Below, piece after piece: positions 1 to 7,331 of a DNA stretch of 64,000 bases; position 1 is the stretch's first letter, and every line of letters begins with the position of its first letter. The translations under genes and the position numbers were made by a program. The DNA lies in assembly GCA_965116435.1 (NCBI GenBank), contig OZ220686.1, positions 1,594,844-1,658,843 on the forward strand, given 5' to 3'. Origin of the DNA: Rhodothermales bacterium (GTDB lineage Bacteria > Bacteroidota > Rhodothermia > Rhodothermales > VXPQ01). A model generated the notes under the pieces. The model was not told where the DNA came from. It was given only the letters and a program-made list of their open reading frames with translations, and ran no database searches.

Positions 1-109
1 GAATTCGCGTGCCTCGCGGGCGGGTGCGCCCTTTGGTACGGGGGAATATGGCGCACGGTATGCCACGAACGCAGACAATAACGAAGCAAAACGACCCGAC
101 CCCTTGATT

Positions 110-125
110 TTTAGCCTTGGCTAAA
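110..125. promoter_or_regulatory. Perfect palindrome TTTAGCC-TT-GGCTAAA upstream of the metal-uptake operon; candidate DtxR/MntR-type operator
   Basis: 7-bp arms are exact reverse complements. It lies in an AT-richer stretch about 180-250 nt upstream of the possible starts of the substrate-binding protein gene. The half-site TTAGCC/GGCTAA resembles the core of the DtxR/IdeR iron box as I recall it. Confidence 0.3.
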
Positions 126-306
126 CTTATATTTAGATACGCTATACTTTTGCGGCCTTCCTGTTGCGGCCTTACGAACCTCCGCGAACCAGGCCGGGCT
201 GAATTCGCGAGCCCGCTGATTTTTTCGGGATGATCCAGATGATCCAGATGATCGGAATAATCCAACCCTTGCGAACAGACCAACCCGATCTGGCCGCACG
301 GACAGG

Positions 307-1440
307 ATGGGCCTGACCTGTTCAACCCGCCCGCCTCGCCGCCCTCTTCACATTCTTCCTCGCCCGATGCACCCAATGCGTCCAATGCGCCCGATGCGCC
401 CCATACGATCGTATTCCCTGCTACCCGCTATCCGGTACGCCGCGGGCCCGAAGGTCCTCGCAAGCGCACTGGGCACACTGGGCGCTCTTGGTACCCAGTG
501 CACCGCACTCACCTTAGCCGCGCTGGTTGCCCTGGGCGCCATAACCGGGTGCGGACAGACGCGAGGCCACGACGCAGCCTCGCCGAACCAGCTCGGCGTC
601 GTGGTCACCACCAGTATGATCGCGGACCTGACCGCGCAGATCGGCGGCGAGCGCGTCTCCGTGACCGGCCTCATGGGGCCGGGCGTGGACCCGCACCTGT
701 ACAAGGCCAGCGCTGGCGACGTGACCCGCCTGTCCCAGGCCGACGTCATCCTGTACAACGGGTTGCATCTGGAAGGCAAGATGGGCGACGTCTTCGAGCA
801 AATGCACGGGCGCGGCGTACCCGTATTCGCCGTGGCGGAAGAAAGCACGACCCCGGAAGACCTGATCGACTCGGAGCGGTTCCAGGGCAACTACGACCCG
901 CATGTGTGGTTCGACATAGCCCTGTGGAAAAAGGCGGCCCGACGCGTACAGGAAATCCTGGCGGAAGCCGATCCCCTCCATGCGGAAACCTACCAGCAAC
1001 GCCTCGACGCGTACCTTGCGGAGATGGATCGCGTGCATGCGTACGTCCGGGAACAGGCCGACGCCCTGCCGGCGGACCGCCGCGTCCTCGTCACGTCGCA
1101 CGACGCCTTCGGCTATTTCGGCCGGGCGTACGGATTCGAAGTCCATGGGCTGCAAGGCATTAGCACGGCCTCGGAGGCGGGCGCGGCGGACGTGCAACAC
1201 CTTGCCGACCTGGTGGCCCGCCGCCGGATTCCGGCCATGTTCGTCGAAACCTCCATATCTCCCCGAGGCATCGAAGCCGTACAGGAAGCGGTCCGCGCCC
1301 GCGGATTCGACGTGGATGTCGGGGGAACGCTCTACGGCGACGCGCTCGGAGACCCCGACTCGCAGGCCGGCGCGTACCTCGGGATGATGCGCGCAAACAT
1401 CGACGCTATCGTGGCGGCCCTGTCCAGGGATCCTGCGTGA
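307..1440 (+). CDS. Metal (Mn/Zn/Fe) ABC transporter substrate-binding lipoprotein, TroA/MntA/ZnuA (cluster 9) family
   Basis: [10 protein letters not shown] and YDPHVWFD motifs are typical of the TroA/ZnuA family. Lipobox-like AITGC. First gene of a 4-gene operon. Start uncertain: in-frame ATGs at 367-394 lie inside a 9-bp PMR repeat. Confidence 0.88.
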
Positions 1441-2315
1441 AGGACGCGGCAGCCATAGAAGTGCGCGACCTGACCGTCGCCTACCGGGACCAGCCCGTGC
1501 TGTGGGACATCGACCTGACCGTGCCGCCCGGCGTGCTCATGGCCGTCGTGGGACCCAACGGCGCCGGAAAAACCACCTTCGTCAAGGCCCTGCTGGGGCT
1601 GTTGCCGATTTCTGCAGGCCGCATCCGGTTCTTCGGAGCGCCCTATGAGACCTCCCGGCAAGACATCGCCTATGTGCCGCAACGGGGTAGCGTGGATTGG
1701 GATTTCCCGACCAGCGCGCTGGACGTGGTGATGATGGGGCGCTACGGGCGCCTTGGATGGATGCGCCGCCCGGGCAAACGCGAACGCGCGCAGGCGCAGG
1801 AAGCGCTGGCCCGCGTGGGCATGGAAGCGTTCGCCGACCGGCAGATTCGGCAACTGTCCGGCGGACAACAGCAACGCGTGTTTCTGGCGCGCGCCCTGGT
1901 GCAGGATGCCCGGGTGTACCTGATGGACGAACCTTTCCAGGGGGTGGACGCCGTCACGGAACGGGCCATCATCGACCTGCTGCGGGCGTTGCGGGCGCAG
2001 GGACGCACATTGCTCGTCGTGCACCACGACCTGCAAACCGTCGAGGAATACTTCGACCATGCGATGCTGCTGAATGTCCGGCGGATTGCTTCCGGCCCGG
2101 TCGCAAAGGCCTTTACGCCGGAGAATCTGCGCCTTGCGTACGGCGGACGCATCGCCTTTTTGCGAAGCGTGGAGACGAGCGGCCCGGTCGAACCCGACGA
2201 AACCTCCGCCTCCTCTACCCCTCCCGAACCCCCTGCATCTTCAAAAGCCGCCCCTTCCACCCCTCCTGAACCCACCGAACCGTCCGAACCCGCCGCCCCT
2301 TCCAGACCCTCCTGA
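1437..2315 (+). CDS. Metal ABC transporter ATP-binding protein (TroB/MntB/ZnuC-like) with a Pro/Glu/Ser-rich C-terminal tail
   Basis: Walker [10 protein letters not shown], signature LSGGQQQR, Walker B VYLMDEP. GTG start overlaps the upstream stop (GTGA at 1437-1440). Confidence 0.92.
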
Positions 2316-2353
2316 ACCCACGGAGCCGTCCGAACCCCCCACTCCCTTCCAGA
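2261..2353. repeat. Tandem 46/47-bp direct repeat at the 3' end of the ATPase gene
   Basis: Unit ccctcctgaacccacSgaRccgtccgaaccc...ccttccaga occurs at 2261-2306 and 2307-2353, with a partial third start after 2354. The unit is not a multiple of 3. The TGA read as ..CCT GAA.. in unit 1 becomes the in-frame stop (2313-2315) in unit 2. Confidence 0.75.
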
Positions 2354-2417
2354 CCCTCTCGAACGCGCCGAACGAACCGGCCCGCCCCTGCGCATCACCC
2401 TGCACCTCCAAACCCCC

Positions 2418-3524
2418 ATGGAATACCTGTTCAGCGACTATACGCTACGCATGGTGGCGCTGGGTTCCGCCGTACTGGGCATTGTGAGCGGCGGACTGGG
2501 GACGTACGCCGTACTGCGCGGGCAAAGCCTCCTCGGCGACGCCATTTCGCACGCCGCCCTGCCCGGCGTCGCGCTGGCTTTCCTGGTGACGGGAAGCAAG
2601 GCCCCGCTGGCGCTCATGATCGGCGCCGCGCTGGCGGGATGGCTGGCCACCCTCTGGATTCTGTCCATCACAGAAACCACCCGCATCAAGTACGACAGCA
2701 TGCTGGCCCTGGCGCTGTCCGTGTTCTTTGGCGTGGGGCTGGTCCTGCTCACGTGGATTCGGCAACACGCCGGGGCCGCCCAGGCCGGGCTGGATACGTT
2801 TTTGTTCGGACAGGCATCCTCCCTGGTCCGCCGCGACGTCGTCGCCATGGCCATTCCGGGCGGGGCCGCGCTCCTCCTTGCGGGGCTTTTCTGGAAAGAA
2901 CTGAAATTGCTGGCCTTCGACCCGGAATATGGACGCACGCTGGGCTTGCCCATGCGGCGCGTGGACCTCTTCCTGACCGCGCTGCTGGTCGTGGCCATCG
3001 TCATCGGACTGCAAACCGTCGGCGTCGTGCTGATGAGCGCCATGCTCGTGGCGCCCGCCGCCGCCGCCAGGCAATGGACGGATGTCCTGTGGAAAATGGT
3101 CCTGCTGTCCGCCGGGTTCGGCGCGGCGGGGGGCGTCTCCGGGGCCGTGCTCAGCAGCCTCGAAACCGGCCTCCCGACCGGGCCGCTGATCGTGCTCTGC
3201 ATGGGGGCGATCGTGGTGGCGTCCCTCTTCCTGGCGCCGAAGCGCGGCCTGCTGGGACAGCGCCTGCGAAGACGGCGGAATGCGGGACGTTTCCAGCGCG
3301 AACGCGTGCTGCTGGACCTCTACGCGCTGGGCATGCAGCACCACGACCCGCTGCGCCCCCACCCGCAGGGCGCGGTGCAAGCGATGCGGGCGCAAGACAT
3401 TCCCGTAGACCGCCTGCTTATGCGTCTGGAAAAGGAAGGCCTCGTCCGCCGCGCAGAGGATGGATGGGCTCTGAGCGAGGCGGGCCGGCGCCGCGCGGAA
3501 ACGCTGAAAACAGAACAACGATGA
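2418..3524 (+). CDS. Metal ABC transporter permease (ABC-3, TroC/MntC-like) with a C-terminal DtxR-like winged-helix extension
   Basis: Multi-TM ABC-3-like body (DAISHAALPGVALAF). After the last TM come an Arg-rich linker (RLRRRRN) and a roughly 80-aa soluble tail ...DRLLMRLEKEGLVRRAEDGWALSEAGRRRAETL. Confidence 0.88.
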   Translation: MEYLFSDYTLRMVALGSAVLGIVSGGLGTYAVLRGQSLLGDAISHAALPGVALAFLVTGSKAPLALMIGAALAGWLATLWILSITETTRIKYDSMLALALSVFFGVGLVLLTWIRQHAGAAQAGLDTFLFGQASSLVRRDVVAMAIPGGAALLLAGLFWKELKLLAFDPEYGRTLGLPMRRVDLFLTALLVVAIVIGLQTVGVVLMSAMLVAPAAAARQWTDVLWKMVLLSAGFGAAGGVSGAVLSSLETGLPTGPLIVLCMGAIVVASLFLAPKRGLLGQRLRRRRNAGRFQRERVLLDLYALGMQHHDPLRPHPQGAVQAMRAQDIPVDRLLMRLEKEGLVRRAEDGWALSEAGRRRAETLKTEQR

Positions 3525-4636
3525 CCCAGGGAGAGCTTGAAATCCAGCTGCTCGCCGTGGTCGTCGCGGCGGCGTGCGCGCTTCCGGGCGCGTTCCTCGT
3601 GCTGCGCAAAATGGCCATGATGAGCGACGCCATAAGCCACGCCATCTTGCCGGGCATCGTTGTGGCGTTTTTCTGGACCCACGACCTGAATTCCCCCCTG
3701 CTGATTCTGGCCGCGGCGGCTACAGGCGTACTCACCGCCATGCTGGTCGAACTGCTCATCTCCACGCAGCGCGTCCGGGAAGATGCGGCGATCGGGCTGG
3801 TGTTTCCCGTGTTATTCAGCGTGGGCGTACTCCTCATCGCTCGCTACGCCGGGGACGTGCACCTCGATACCGACGCAGTGCTCCTCGGCGAACCGGCCTT
3901 CGCCCCGTTCGACCGGCTCGTGGTGGCGGGACGGGATATCGGACCGCGCGCGCTGTACGCGACGGGCGCGGCGGGGCTGGCGAACGCCGTCTTCATCGCC
4001 CTGTTCTACAAGGAACTGAAGATCGCCACATTCGATGCGGGCCTCGCGGCGACGCTGGGGTTCGCCCCAGCGCTGATCCATTACGGACTCATGACCCTCG
4101 TTTCGCTCACCGCCGTGGCGGCGTTCGACGCCGTGGGGTCCATCCTCGTCGTGGCCCTGATGGTCGCGCCGTCCGCAGCGGCCTGCCTGCTCACCGACCG
4201 GCTCCGCACCATGATCCTGTGGAGCGTGGCGCTTGGCGTGGTTTCCGCGCTGGCGGGATTCCAGGCGGCCCGCCTCTTCGACGTATCCATCGCCGGCGCC
4301 ATGGCCGCGGCGGCGGGGGCGATCTTTGCGATGGTCTGGCTGGCGGCTCCCCGGTACGGCGTGCTCGCGGGCCGGCGGCGTCGCAGGCGGCAAAAATGGG
4401 AATTCGCCGAGAAAATGCTGGCCATTCACCTGTTCAACCACGAAGGGCTGCCCGAGGCGGATATAGAACACCGGGTCGGGCACCTCGAAGAACATCTCTC
4501 CTGGGAACGGGATTTTGCGCAGCGGGTCGTCCGCCGGGCGCAATCGAACGGGCTGGTACGGCGCGCCGGCGACGACATGCTGGCCTTGACCCCGAAGGGC
4601 CGCAAAGCCGCCTCCGAGGCCATCGAGAACCTGTAG
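3521..4636 (+). CDS. Second metal ABC transporter permease (TroD/MntD-like), also with a C-terminal DtxR-like winged-helix extension
   Basis: ATG at 3521 overlaps the upstream stop (ATGA). MTQGELEIQLLAVVV... DAISHAILPGIVVAF. Tail after RRRRRRQK: ...FAQRVVRRAQSNGLVRRAGDDMLALTPKGRKAASEAIENL. The longer track ORF from 2639 overlaps the previous gene in another frame. Confidence 0.85.
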   Translation: MTQGELEIQLLAVVVAAACALPGAFLVLRKMAMMSDAISHAILPGIVVAFFWTHDLNSPLLILAAAATGVLTAMLVELLISTQRVREDAAIGLVFPVLFSVGVLLIARYAGDVHLDTDAVLLGEPAFAPFDRLVVAGRDIGPRALYATGAAGLANAVFIALFYKELKIATFDAGLAATLGFAPALIHYGLMTLVSLTAVAAFDAVGSILVVALMVAPSAAACLLTDRLRTMILWSVALGVVSALAGFQAARLFDVSIAGAMAAAAGAIFAMVWLAAPRYGVLAGRRRRRRQKWEFAEKMLAIHLFNHEGLPEADIEHRVGHLEEHLSWERDFAQRVVRRAQSNGLVRRAGDDMLALTPKGRKAASEAIENL

Positions 4637-4826
4637 TATCCCGGATTCCGCGAATTACGCGGTGGGGTCCGAGGAGGGGTCGGAAGCCGGATCGGAAACC
4701 GGATCAGAAACCGCAAAGGGCCGCAAAGCCGCCTCCGAGGCCATTGAGAACCTGTAGGGCCCCGGATTCCGCGAATTACGCGGTGGGGTCAGTGGAGGGG
4801 TCGGAAGCCGGATCAGAAGCAGGACC
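4596..4826. repeat. Tandem ~121-bp duplication spanning the tail-to-tail junction of the permease and CcmF-like genes
   Basis: Unit 1 about 4596-4716, unit 2 about 4717-4826. Each unit holds the last ~12 codons of the + gene (GRKAASEAIENL*), a small hairpin ccgcg-aatta-cgcgg (4648-4662 and 4769-4783) and the last codons of the - gene (..SDP..DPTA*). Each gene uses the copy nearest to it. Confidence 0.85.
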
Positions 4827-7331
4827 GGACACAGGATCGGAAGCAGCATCAGAGGCGGTCAGGCGTTTTTCCCGCCGCGCGCTGTAGCGGTGGTCCGCAT
4901 AGCGCCGCCAGACGGCCAGCCCGAACCCGCCGGTAAGCAGCAGGAATCCCAACCACAGGAAGTTGATGAACGGCTTTTCCCAGGCCTGCACCACAATCCA
5001 TTCATCGGGCGAAACAGCGACCCCTTCCAGAAAAAGGCGAATGGAGCCGTTATCCACGTTCATGCCCGTAAACGTGACCGTCAAGTCCCAGTCGTTCACG
5101 CGATTCTGAATGTATTGCTGCGTACGGTCCTGCATGATCAGATAGACCGGGCTCAGACGACGGGTTTCGCGGGTTTCCAGATTCGTCACGTCCAACAAGG
5201 CCGCCACGCCAATTTCCGTGGAATCGGGCAGGTCGGGGATGTTCGTCTGGTAATTGACGAACCGGATGGCGAACGCGTCGCCACCCACCACCGTGGAATC
5301 TCCCCGGGAGATGGTCAGTTCGCCCTGTTTGGCGGCAGGGTCTTCGGTTTCTTCGTCCGTCTCGTACATGGCGCTGGGCGACACCGCTACGAATATATCC
5401 TTGTCCAGGTACATTTCGTGGTCGGGATGCTGGATCCACTGCGCCTGCGTGCTTTTGTATACGACCGGGCGGACGGTGAAGGCGCGTCCGTTCGAATCGA
5501 CGAAATCCAGCACGTACACCGGACGGTTGCGGGCCGTGCGTTCGCGCCCGGACCAGGTCACGAGGTATCCCCCCACCGAGCGCGTCTGGCCTCGCTCCAG
5601 CACGAACGTATCCGAGCGATCCGTCAGCGGCGCGCCGCGCAATACGCCGATGGGCTTGCTGAACCCGCTGGACGCCACGATGGCCAGCGCCATAATGGCG
5701 AAGCCCACATGCGCCGTGGCGCCGCCCGCCATGCGCGGATTGCCGCGCCCGATCTTCCAGAGCACCATCCCGTTTCCGTAGAGCGCAAAGAACGCCATGA
5801 ACACAAGGAGCAGCAGCATAATGCCTGTCCCGTAGACCTCCCCGAAACCCCGGATCCCTTCGATCAACCCGAATCCCGCCTGCGCAGCCTCCGGGACGCC
5901 GCCCGCCGCCGATACGTCGGGCCGCTGAACGGTTGCCGCCGCAAACGGCGTAAAAATCAGCACCGCGACCGTACTGACCACCGCCCCGAGGATCGGTTTG
6001 AGCAGGACCCGGTTCGCCTGCTCGATATTCATCCGGTTCCACCAGAACAACTGCCCGAGGCCCGCAAGGAACACGATCAGGATGGAGAGCGGGAGCGACC
6101 ACTTGTTGTAGAACTCGATGGGCACCGTAGAAGGCGCCTCCCGAAACAGTTTCCCCAGAATAGGCGAACTGGTGCCTACGGTCACGACGGCGGCCAGGCA
6201 CGCCAGCAGCATGGCGCCGCAGAACGTCATGAACTCGCGCGAGAGCACGTTGGGTTCGCGGTCGGGCGCAGGCAGCTCCCGATACCGAACCGCAAAAAAG
6301 CCGAACCCGACCGCGCCCATGGCCAAGATCCAGACGAGCAGCTGGTTCATCATGCCCAGATCGACGAAGGAATGCACAGACACGTCGCCCAGTATCCCGC
6401 TCCGGGTCAGAAACGTCGAGTAAATGACCAGCATGTACGACAGGATGCAGAACAGGAAGGTGGATTTGTGGGCCCGCCCGCTTTTCTTCCGGATAATCAT
6501 GGCGTGGACCGCCGCGATGCCCGTAAGCCAGGGCACGAGGGAGGAATTTTCCACGGGATCCCACGCCCAGTAGCCGCCGAACGAAAGCGTTTCGTACGCC
6601 CAATAGCCGCCCATCGCAATGCCCACGCCCAGCACGGCGGTCGCGGCGAGCGCCCAGGGCAACGCCTGCGGAATCCACTCGACGTACCGGCGTTTCCACA
6701 GCGCCGCAATGGCGAATGCAAACGGAACCGCCATGAGCGTGAAGCCCATGAAAAGCGTCGGCGGATGAATGACCATCCAGTAATTCTGGAGCAAATCGTT
6801 CAGCCCCGACCCGTCCGCAGGCAGGAACCCCGGAATTTGCAGCATGGGCGCGTCCGGGAACTTGTCGGCGAGCGTGGCGAAGGGCGACGCGCCAACCCGC
6901 AGCGGCCCCAGCTGCAACCCCGCAATCATGGACGTCAGAAACCATTGCGACCCCGCCAGAATCGTCATCACAGGGGCTTCCCAGGCCCGCCGCAAGCGCA
7001 TCAGCGCCAGGCCGAGCGCGCTCATCAGGAGAATCCAGAGCAGAAACGACCCCTCCTGACCGGCCCAGAACGACGAAACCAGAAAGTGGGTCGGCAGCGC
7101 GCGGGAGGTTTGCTGATATACGTAGGCGTACTGGAACTGATGCGTGAGGAGCAGGACCATCAGGATCGCCGCCGCCGCCGCAAGGCTTGCGGTCATGCCA
7201 ATCCACGCAACACGGCCAATCCGCTTCCATTCGGCGTCGCCGGTGCGCGCCGCCCGAAGATATGCGTAGCCCGCAAGCGCGCAGCCCACAAAGCCGAACA
7301 GGACCAGAATGTGCCCGATGACGCCGGACAT
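4776..7331 (-). CDS. Cytochrome c biogenesis heme lyase, CcmF/NrfE family (extended, 851 aa)
   Basis: Trp-rich heme-handling motif GGYWAWDPVENSSLVPWL, many TM helices, CcmF-like N-terminus. C-terminal ASDP-type low-complexity tail. Confidence 0.8.
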   Translation of the reverse strand: MSGVIGHILVLFGFVGCALAGYAYLRAARTGDAEWKRIGRVAWIGMTASLAAAAAILMVLLLTHQFQYAYVYQQTSRALPTHFLVSSFWAGQEGSFLLWILLMSALGLALMRLRRAWEAPVMTILAGSQWFLTSMIAGLQLGPLRVGASPFATLADKFPDAPMLQIPGFLPADGSGLNDLLQNYWMVIHPPTLFMGFTLMAVPFAFAIAALWKRRYVEWIPQALPWALAATAVLGVGIAMGGYWAYETLSFGGYWAWDPVENSSLVPWLTGIAAVHAMIIRKKSGRAHKSTFLFCILSYMLVIYSTFLTRSGILGDVSVHSFVDLGMMNQLLVWILAMGAVGFGFFAVRYRELPAPDREPNVLSREFMTFCGAMLLACLAAVVTVGTSSPILGKLFREAPSTVPIEFYNKWSLPLSILIVFLAGLGQLFWWNRMNIEQANRVLLKPILGAVVSTVAVLIFTPFAAATVQRPDVSAAGGVPEAAQAGFGLIEGIRGFGEVYGTGIMLLLLVFMAFFALYGNGMVLWKIGRGNPRMAGGATAHVGFAIMALAIVASSGFSKPIGVLRGAPLTDRSDTFVLERGQTRSVGGYLVTWSGRERTARNRPVYVLDFVDSNGRAFTVRPVVYKSTQAQWIQHPDHEMYLDKDIFVAVSPSAMYETDEETEDPAAKQGELTISRGDSTVVGGDAFAIRFVNYQTNIPDLPDSTEIGVAALLDVTNLETRETRRLSPVYLIMQDRTQQYIQNRVNDWDLTVTFTGMNVDNGSIRLFLEGVAVSPDEWIVVQAWEKPFINFLWLGFLLLTGGFGLAVWRRYADHRYSARREKRLTASDAASDPVSGPASDPASDPSTDPTA

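Follow-up and report, generated by a model that had tools for sequence, protein, structure and literature searches.

Introduction

Importers of the Tro, Mnt and Psa type are the main high-affinity uptake systems for manganese, zinc and iron in many bacteria, including pathogens. In the TroABCD-TroR systems of Treponema pallidum and T. denticola and in MntABCD-MntR, a binding protein, an ATPase and two different permeases of the ABC-3 family (ABC, ATP-binding cassette) are encoded in a conserved order, and transcription is controlled by a DtxR-family repressor through a dyad element of the promoter. Here we describe an operon in a 64-kb stretch of contig OZ220686.1 from a Rhodothermales bacterium (hereafter the window; all coordinates refer to it). 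According to its sequence, the region 307-4636 is the operon of a TroABCD/MntABCD-type (ABC-3, cluster A-I) Mn/Zn/Fe importer, with the same gene order and with a dyad in its promoter. It differs from the Tro operons in that troR is not present in the operon and in that both permeases are long. Each permease ends in an additional cytoplasmic domain, called tail 1 and tail 2 below, and these two domains and the promoter dyad are the subject of this paper.

The closest precedent is YtgCR (CT069) of Chlamydia trachomatis. In YtgCR, an ABC-3 permease continues into the DtxR-like repressor YtgR; after its cleavage from the permease, YtgR together with iron represses the ytg promoter. Thus, the idea of a permease-repressor fusion is already known, and such permease-DtxR fusions are reported in 11 phyla according to a review. 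The window resembles YtgCR in the transporter family, in having a DtxR-related domain on the cytoplasmic C-terminus of an ABC-3 permease, and in having a DtxR-type operator. The differences are as follows. YtgR is complete, with a winged helix-turn-helix (wHTH), a dimerisation domain and the DtxR metal ligands, and cleavage yields a product of about 28-30 kDa; only one permease carries YtgR, which takes the place of a stand-alone regulator. In the window, on the other hand, only a wHTH of about 75 residues is present, it occurs on both permeases, it has neither a reading head nor a dimerisation domain, and full-length regulators often coexist with such tails.

The Mn-dependent DtxR-family repressor DR2539 of Deinococcus radiodurans is related to the window in two ways: its operator shares the box TTTAG-N6-CTAAA with the window, and DR2539 is the best sequence match of tail 1 in the PDB. 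Unlike the tails, DR2539 forms a soluble homodimer, in which DNA-binding, dimerisation and ancillary domains are combined with eight Mn sites. Its operator in the mntH (dr1709) promoter is ATTTTAGTCGCGCCTAAAAT, and the protein-DNA complex has been solved (PDB 8pw0).

Compared with the control of importer expression, little is known about how the activity of such importers is shut off. Cytoplasmic sensor domains are present on the ATPases of other ABC importers, such as the C2 domain of MetN and the regulatory domain of ModC. In the ABC-3 family, a cytoplasmic Zn-sensing domain of ZnuC that locks the ZnuBC transporter was reported only recently. Therefore, post-translational feedback occurs in this family. 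The ZnuC domain is like the tails in that it is a small cytoplasmic domain on a transporter of the same family and provides feedback alongside transcriptional control. However, it is located on the ATPase, has another fold and contains the motif CxxxHxCC, whereas the domain in the window is a winged helix on the permease for which sensing is proposed by analogy.

Structure and distribution of the permease tails

The two permease genes are joined by an ATGA overlap and are divided as follows.

2418-3524, plus strand: permease 1 gene, 368 residues
2418-3242, plus strand: permease 1 membrane core, ABC-3, TroC-like (PF00950 at residues 8-272, E = 1.9e-64)
3243-3521, plus strand: tail 1, residues 276-368, Arg-rich linker helix and wHTH (AlphaFold2, Foldseek and profile comparisons)
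3521-4636, plus strand: permease 2 gene, 371 residues
3521-4348, plus strand: permease 2 membrane core, ABC-3, TroD-like (PF00950 at residues 10-271, E = 1.9e-44)
4349-4633, plus strand: tail 2, residues 277-371, Arg-rich linker helix and wHTH (AlphaFold2, Foldseek and profile comparisons)

The membrane cores are those of ordinary ABC-3 permeases. PsaC (PDB 7kyo/7kyp) is matched by permease 1 with E = 1e-34 (residues 12-280 on PsaC 17-274) and by permease 2 with E = 1e-25 (residues 10-283). The Asp/His pair D46/H50 in transmembrane helix 2 is the metal coordination site of PsaC; D41/H45 of permease 1 and D36/H40 of permease 2, which belong to a DAISH motif present in both permeases, fall on this pair. 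The Pfam ABC-3 domain stops at about residue 272, and the solved homologues PsaC (282 residues) and ZnuB (260 residues) end about 8 residues past the aligned core. Thus, about 90 soluble C-terminal residues per permease are extra relative to the solved homologues. A first-pass annotation of this DNA, made from the sequence, had given the two permease lengths, the linkers RLRRRRN and RRRRRRQK and the C-terminal sequences exactly, and its statement that these permeases are longer than usual ABC-3 permeases agrees with the lengths of PsaC and ZnuB.

The tails are predicted to be cytoplasmic. PsaC and ZnuB have nine transmembrane helices, and the coupling helix after the fifth is cytoplasmic; PsaC was purified as a C-terminal fusion to green fluorescent protein. 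As an Arg-rich segment follows the last transmembrane helix of the window permeases and the cores are homologous to those of the nine-helix PsaC and ZnuB, the sequence evidence supports a cytoplasmic location. No hydrophobic segment was found past residue ~275 in either permease, and periplasmic or transmembrane tails are ruled out by these three observations together. In PsaC, the ninth transmembrane helix contributes to the permease dimer interface; the tails would therefore leave the membrane near the pseudo-two-fold axis, above the ATPases. A natural fusion protein found in the search of cluster representatives (P0314, 646 residues) joins the two tailed permeases in a single chain: permease 1 and its tail are followed by a Pro/Ala/Thr-rich linker, an additional transmembrane helix, and permease 2 with tail 2. 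The additional helix is what would be needed if tail 1 lies inside and the N-terminus of permease 2 lies outside, and the fusion speaks for tail 1 being on the inner side.

Structure prediction using AlphaFold2 with family alignments gave a confident wHTH model for both tails; the predicted local distance difference test score was 85.7 for tail 1 and 90.5 for tail 2. In each model, the Arg-rich linker starts a helix of about 30 residues, which continues into helix 1 of the domain; the winged helix is composed of three helices and two strands and is followed by one further helix. A Foldseek search against the PDB with either tail returned winged-helix proteins exclusively. For tail 2, the top matches were Escherichia coli MntR (2h09), Bacillus subtilis MntR, DtxR and IdeR, with root-mean-square deviations of 1.5-2.8 Å over about 70 residues and 18-30% identity. 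For tail 1, IdeR, DR2539, MntR and ScaR were interspersed with Rio2, MepR and CAP; over both tails, the deviations span 1.5-3 Å. The profile searches against the PDB gave similar results: DR2539 and ScaR were at the top for tail 1 (E of about 0.02-0.04, DR2539 best), and MntR and IdeR for tail 2 (E of about 0.04-0.08). When the tails were compared by hhalign with an alignment of the N-terminal domains of the DtxR family, the probabilities were 88.7% for tail 1 and 92.6% for tail 2 over the whole domain. The two tails are homologous to each other by profile comparison (93.9%).

The Pfam model PF01325 (Fe_dep_repress), which the first-pass annotation had proposed as a check, matched none of 60 tails (30 of each kind) at E <= 0.1. 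No match to the dimerisation/metal-binding domain PF02742 was found in the tails, and the chain stops one helix past the wing. Scans of single tails against Pfam and NCBIfam gave sub-threshold matches to assorted wHTH families. The stand-alone regulators from related loci, which are described below, readily match PF01325, PF02742 and PF04023. Because PF01325 is not matched and the dimerisation/metal-binding domain is not present, the tails are outside the DtxR family in its present definition. According to the results of structure prediction and profile comparison, the tails are most probably winged-helix domains derived from the DtxR-type DNA-binding domain. The resemblance to the recognition helix and wing of DtxR claimed in the first-pass annotation therefore stands at the level of the fold, but at the level of sequence it is weak.

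The tails are widely distributed. Among the best 120 homologues of each permease, the length is the same in 120 of 120 and in 119 of 120, almost all being 367-397 residues, and the query coverage is 98-100% with the tail sequence kept. These features indicate that the tails are not chance read-through of the open reading frames (ORFs). A scan of one genome per species with one peptide pattern of tail 2 detected 262 loci, in Rhodothermales, Bacteroidota, Gemmatimonadota (Longimicrobium), Poribacteria, Zixibacteria, Chloroflexota, Actinomycetota, Planctomycetota, Sumerlaeota, Thermodesulfobacteriota and Dadabacteria. Looking up cluster members added Myxococcota, a metagenome-assembled genome (MAG) of Rickettsiales, and Caldilineaceae; no Treponema TroD was among these members. 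An exhaustive search of 1.84 billion cluster representatives with a hidden Markov model of tail 2 gave 420 clusters, 239 of them at E <= 1e-10. The full-length matches, and the shorter ones that were inspected, are ABC-3 permeases or their C-terminal fragments. All database sources that name the tailed proteins annotate them as plain 'metal ABC transporter permease', and no paper describing the permease tails was found in a literature search. Thus, the tailed permeases are apparently a widespread and undescribed variant.

More than 20 cluster representatives (P0271, P0284, P0299 and others), nearly all of 71-72 residues, begin at the invariant Met299 of permease 2 (window 4415, MLAIHL...). These entries may reflect truncation during gene calling; alternatively, they may point to internal initiation that produces a free tail.

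Some loci have tail 2 only. In Poribacteria (L017, L023, L026, L039 and L050), permease 1 is short (about 305 residues, no tail 1) and permease 2 is tailed. The published lengths of the Treponema proteins, 298/304 residues for TroC and 367/366 residues for TroD, match this arrangement. From these lengths alone, the archetypal Treponema TroD is suggested to have tail 2, which we regard as a lead.

Conserved surfaces of the tails

Two groups of residues are conserved in the tails. One consists of His, Asp and Glu residues, which are potential metal ligands. In tail 1, D300, H308 and H315 (LLDLYAL..QH......H) are invariant across phyla, and in tail 2, H303, H307, E308, E316, H321 and H325 (IHLxxHEG...E...HLxEHLxW) are invariant or nearly so. 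The other group consists of the hydrophobic core and a GLV...L-T..G motif. In the profile alignment of the two tails, D300 falls on H303 and H308 falls on H307. As these positions coincide, an equivalent ancestral site was probably present at the end of helix 1 in both tails. In tail 2, the neighbouring helices 1 and 2 bear two HxxxH pairs, which, judged from the sequence, would be a typical signature of a metal site. The segment HLEEHLSW of tail 2 looks like the metal-site motif IEHHLSW of MntR; this likeness was rejected as coincidental because the segment corresponds in the alignment to wHTH helix 2 instead of the dimerisation domain.

The DNA-facing helix 3 shows the opposite feature. Its mean entropy is higher than that of the domain as a whole (2.31 versus 1.85 in tail 1, and 1.73 versus 1.38 in tail 2), whereas the helix-3 columns of the stand-alone regulators are mostly at about 1 bit or less. 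Helix 3 of the tails does not begin with the PAS(V/A)T reading head of the stand-alone regulators but with variable sequence. The residues of DR2539 that contact DNA (Tyr12, Ala39, Gly43, Arg46, Lys47 and Tyr59) are not conserved in the tails. The net charge of the tail cores is on average -2.0 for tail 1 and -3.3 for tail 2, whereas the DNA-binding domains of the regulators are mostly positive.

Operator in the promoter and its probable regulator

The first-pass annotation had pointed out a perfect, DtxR-box-like palindrome upstream of the operon, and this was exact in position and sequence. The promoter region contains the following two features.

104-133, plus strand: operon promoter, -35 TTGATT (104-109), 18-nt spacer, -10 TATATT (128-133); sigma-70-like match
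110-125, strand-neutral: operator palindrome TTTAGCC-TT-GGCTAAA with the TTTAG-N6-CTAAA box; unique, conserved, DR2539-type

The promoter is the sole sigma-70-like match within 1-5000, and the palindrome occupies the spacer between -35 and -10. The sequence TTTAGCCTTGGCTAAA at 110-125 is the sole occurrence in 64 kb, where 0.16 would be expected with up to three mismatches. In the Rhodothermales relatives, the promoter block CCCTTGA...TTATATTTAG is kept; the arms TTTAG and CTAAA are invariant and the inner bases drift, with the compensatory pair TTTAGTC..GACTAAA in the relative L004. We then searched for TTTAG-N6-CTAAA with at most one mismatch in the 65 operons that have usable upstream sequence. 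The box is present upstream of 49 of these 65 orthologous operons, in more than 10 phyla. Within the 26 kb upstream of the operons there are 49 sites, and the other 810 kb contain 10, an enrichment of about 150-fold. The box often lies inside a perfect palindrome of 18-22 bp, for example AAATTTAGGCATGCCTAAATTT. These results support the conclusion, drawn from sequence comparison, that the palindrome is a genuine conserved DtxR-family operator of the DR2539/MntR type. A chance match or a terminator is ruled out by the conservation and by the position in the promoter spacer. A literature search with the operator sequences turned up only the classical IdeR/DmdR iron box.

A third conserved TTTAG is located at 132-136, after the palindrome, and overlaps the -10 element (TTTAGCCTTGGCTAAACTTATATTTAG). 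This element could act as an additional half-site, or it could just belong to the promoter.

The regulator of this box was considered using 80 related genome loci (L003-L082) and a locus in a Bacteroidota MAG. A complete DtxR-family gene is present with or beside the importer genes in 21 of the 80 loci, usually as the first gene of the operon. These regulators are mostly 214-251 residues long; one MntR-like regulator has 146 residues, and a few derived from ORFs are longer or are cut at the end of the locus. The box is found at 17 of the 18 regulator-bearing loci with usable upstream sequence, and it lies ahead of the regulator gene when this gene is first. In the Bacteroidota MAG, the genes are arranged in the order regulator, binding protein, ATPase, permease of 372 residues and permease of 367 residues; both permeases are tailed, and only a few nucleotides separate the end of the box AATTTAGGCATGCCTAAACT from the downstream start codon of the regulator. 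The stand-alone regulators share the helix-3 head of DR2539, (A/S/T)PAS(A/V)TxM(L/I/V)KKL.

According to the first-pass annotation, the tails may be the DNA-binding module of a repressor, split off and replacing troR/mntR, and a survey of whether genomes with tails lack the stand-alone gene was proposed as a check. The loci examined here do not support this reading. Tails that are 50-60% identical to those of the window occur beside full-length regulators in the operon, and this coexistence is observed in Poribacteria, Zixibacteria, Thermodesulfobacteriota, Chloroflexota, Actinomycetota and Bacteroidota. Because full-length regulators coexist with tails, the tails do not replace the repressor in those lineages. 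A regulator gene is also present in all of the Poribacteria loci with a short permease 1 except L039. Three loci without tail 1 have usable upstream sequence; among them, Poribacteria L017 has a perfect box and L023 has a near-perfect box.

The further proposal that the two tails bind the palindrome together, as a heterodimer mimicking the DtxR dimer, is also not borne out. The box is two-fold symmetric, with perfect palindromes of up to 22 bp, and fits a homodimer, whereas the recognition helices of tail 1 and tail 2 would differ from each other; this argues against the tails as the binder. The box kept at loci without tail 1, the variable helix 3, the acidic cores and the lack of a dimerisation domain all point in the same direction. 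The alternative that the same annotation had left open, namely that the tails were co-opted for a function other than DNA binding, is favoured by the evidence.

Proposed mechanism and alternatives

We lean, at somewhat better than even chances, towards a reading in two parts: the box is the site of a repressor distinct from the tails, and the tails act as regulatory modules that bind metal in the cytoplasm and feed back on the transporter. The first part, a separate regulator for the box, is considered likely. The box would be the target of a canonical homodimeric Mn sensor of the DtxR family (DR2539/MntR/TroR type), whose gene lies in or beside the operon in many other phyla and presumably elsewhere in the genome here. 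When loaded with metal, the sensor would block RNA polymerase at the promoter. The tails would have descended from a DtxR-type DNA-binding domain, would have lost the DNA-reading head, and in no case carry the dimerisation domain. Their likeliest role would be to capture imported metal in the cytoplasm, close to the pore exit and the ATPase dimer, and at high cytoplasmic metal to trans-inhibit the transporter, analogous to the Zn-sensing domain of ZnuC. Trans-inhibition with metal sensing as the specific function of the tails is a serious possibility, to which we assign somewhat less than an even chance. The ATPase of the window has a low-complexity Pro/Glu/Ser extension, and the putative regulatory domain is located on the permeases instead. 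More tentatively, the tails may constitute an undescribed class of permease-borne metal sensors, derived from DtxR, that lost DNA binding, kept or evolved a His/Asp/Glu site, and gate Tro-type importers from the cytoplasm in more than 10 phyla, with Treponema TroD probably among them.

Several points weigh against this reading. No DtxR-family ORF was found in the operon, as the first-pass annotation had noted, nor in the rest of the 64-kb window, nor in the 7 kb upstream in the near-identical contigs L001 and L002. YtgCR is a precedent in which a DtxR domain fused to a permease is a real repressor. The known trans-inhibition domains are on the ATPase, not on the permease. The assignment of the tails as metal sensors is drawn from sequence and analogy, and a clustering of the invariant His, Asp and Glu residues in space is presumed from their positions in the sequence. 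In addition, all the loci examined were chosen for tail 2, and thus the box is not statistically separable from tail 2.

An unlikely but better surviving alternative is that the tails have a structural or docking role without metal sensing. They would stabilise the C/D heterodimer and its contact with the ATPases or determine their specificity, or they would provide a docking surface for a cytoplasmic partner, for example a metallochaperone or the repressor, and the conserved His, Asp and Glu would be interface residues. This agrees with the observation that conservation is highest on the surfaces of helix 1 and the following loop, not on the DNA-facing helix, and with the model, in which the ~30-residue helix continues the last transmembrane helix as would be expected for a rigid arm beside the ATPases. 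Winged helices are common protein-protein modules, the weak Pfam matches of the tails include wHTH families that do not bind DNA (HemN_C, Mrr_N and the RNase R wHTH), and some lineages manage with tail 2 alone. However, six invariant or near-invariant His and Glu within 25 residues of tail 2, including the two HxxxH pairs, are more typical of a metal site. Also, no conserved extra gene accompanies the operon in the compared loci, so that none could encode the partner.

The other alternative is autoregulation as in YtgCR: the tails, tethered or released by proteolysis or internal translation, would bind the box and repress the operon when metal is abundant, and they would be the main regulator in lineages without a repressor gene in the operon, such as this one. 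In its favour are the cleaved YtgCR of Chlamydia, which represses its own promoter, and the fusions reported in many phyla; the DtxR-type wHTH of the tails, seen in the fold and in weak profile similarity; the regulator gene missing from the window and the sequence upstream; the box at 32 of the 47 loci without a nearby regulator gene; and the many 71-residue entries beginning at Met299, which could mark a free tail. We nevertheless consider it improbable, because neither the dimerisation domain nor the canonical DtxR metal ligands kept by YtgR are found in the tails, their two helices 3 differ and are poorly conserved in spite of a symmetric box, their acidic cores are unlike DNA-binding domains, tails of 50-60% identity coexist with in-operon full-length regulators in six phyla, and the invariant arms of the box match the invariant head of the stand-alone regulators, not the tails.

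Other features of the locus

Upstream of the permease genes, the operon encodes the two remaining components of the importer.

307-1440, plus strand: solute-binding lipoprotein, ZnuA/TroA family (PF01297, E = 2.4e-81)
1437-2315, plus strand: ABC ATPase with a Pro/Glu/Ser-rich C-terminal extension (PF00005, E = 3e-30)

The binding protein is a lipoprotein, since it has the lipobox ITGC with Cys82 at nucleotide 550. Its true start is probably one of the ATG codons at 367-394, rather than 307. The ORF opens with a 10-letter protein repeat (window 307-560), and the number of copies differs among the window, L001 and L002. These two contigs were found via permease 2, whereas the exact sequence of permease 1 matched no contig, and they are too close to the window to inform on conservation. 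The low-complexity extension of the ATPase comprises residues ~245-292 (window 2140-2315) and is absent from the 266-residue orthologues in L001 and L002.

A 121-nt tandem duplication is present at 4589-4709 and 4710-4830; the two copies are 88% identical and have an internal periodicity of 12 nt. The duplicated region 4589-4830 covers the last codons and the stop codon of permease 2 and the 3' end of a convergent ccmF-like ORF (4776-7331, minus strand). The duplication is not present in L001 and L002, in which ccmF ends 19 nt past permease 2.

Biological implications

The TTTAG-N6-CTAAA Mn box should be usable for predicting DtxR-family regulons in many uncultured phyla. Were the tails metal sensors, an off-switch would be built into the permeases of a large subset of these importers that is spread widely over the bacterial phylogeny, and a post-translational layer of feedback would be added to repression by a DR2539-type regulator. 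YtgCR would be one end of a spectrum of fusions between permeases and DtxR domains. The tails would also be a clear case of the DNA-binding domain of a transcription factor that was recycled as a regulatory domain of a transporter.

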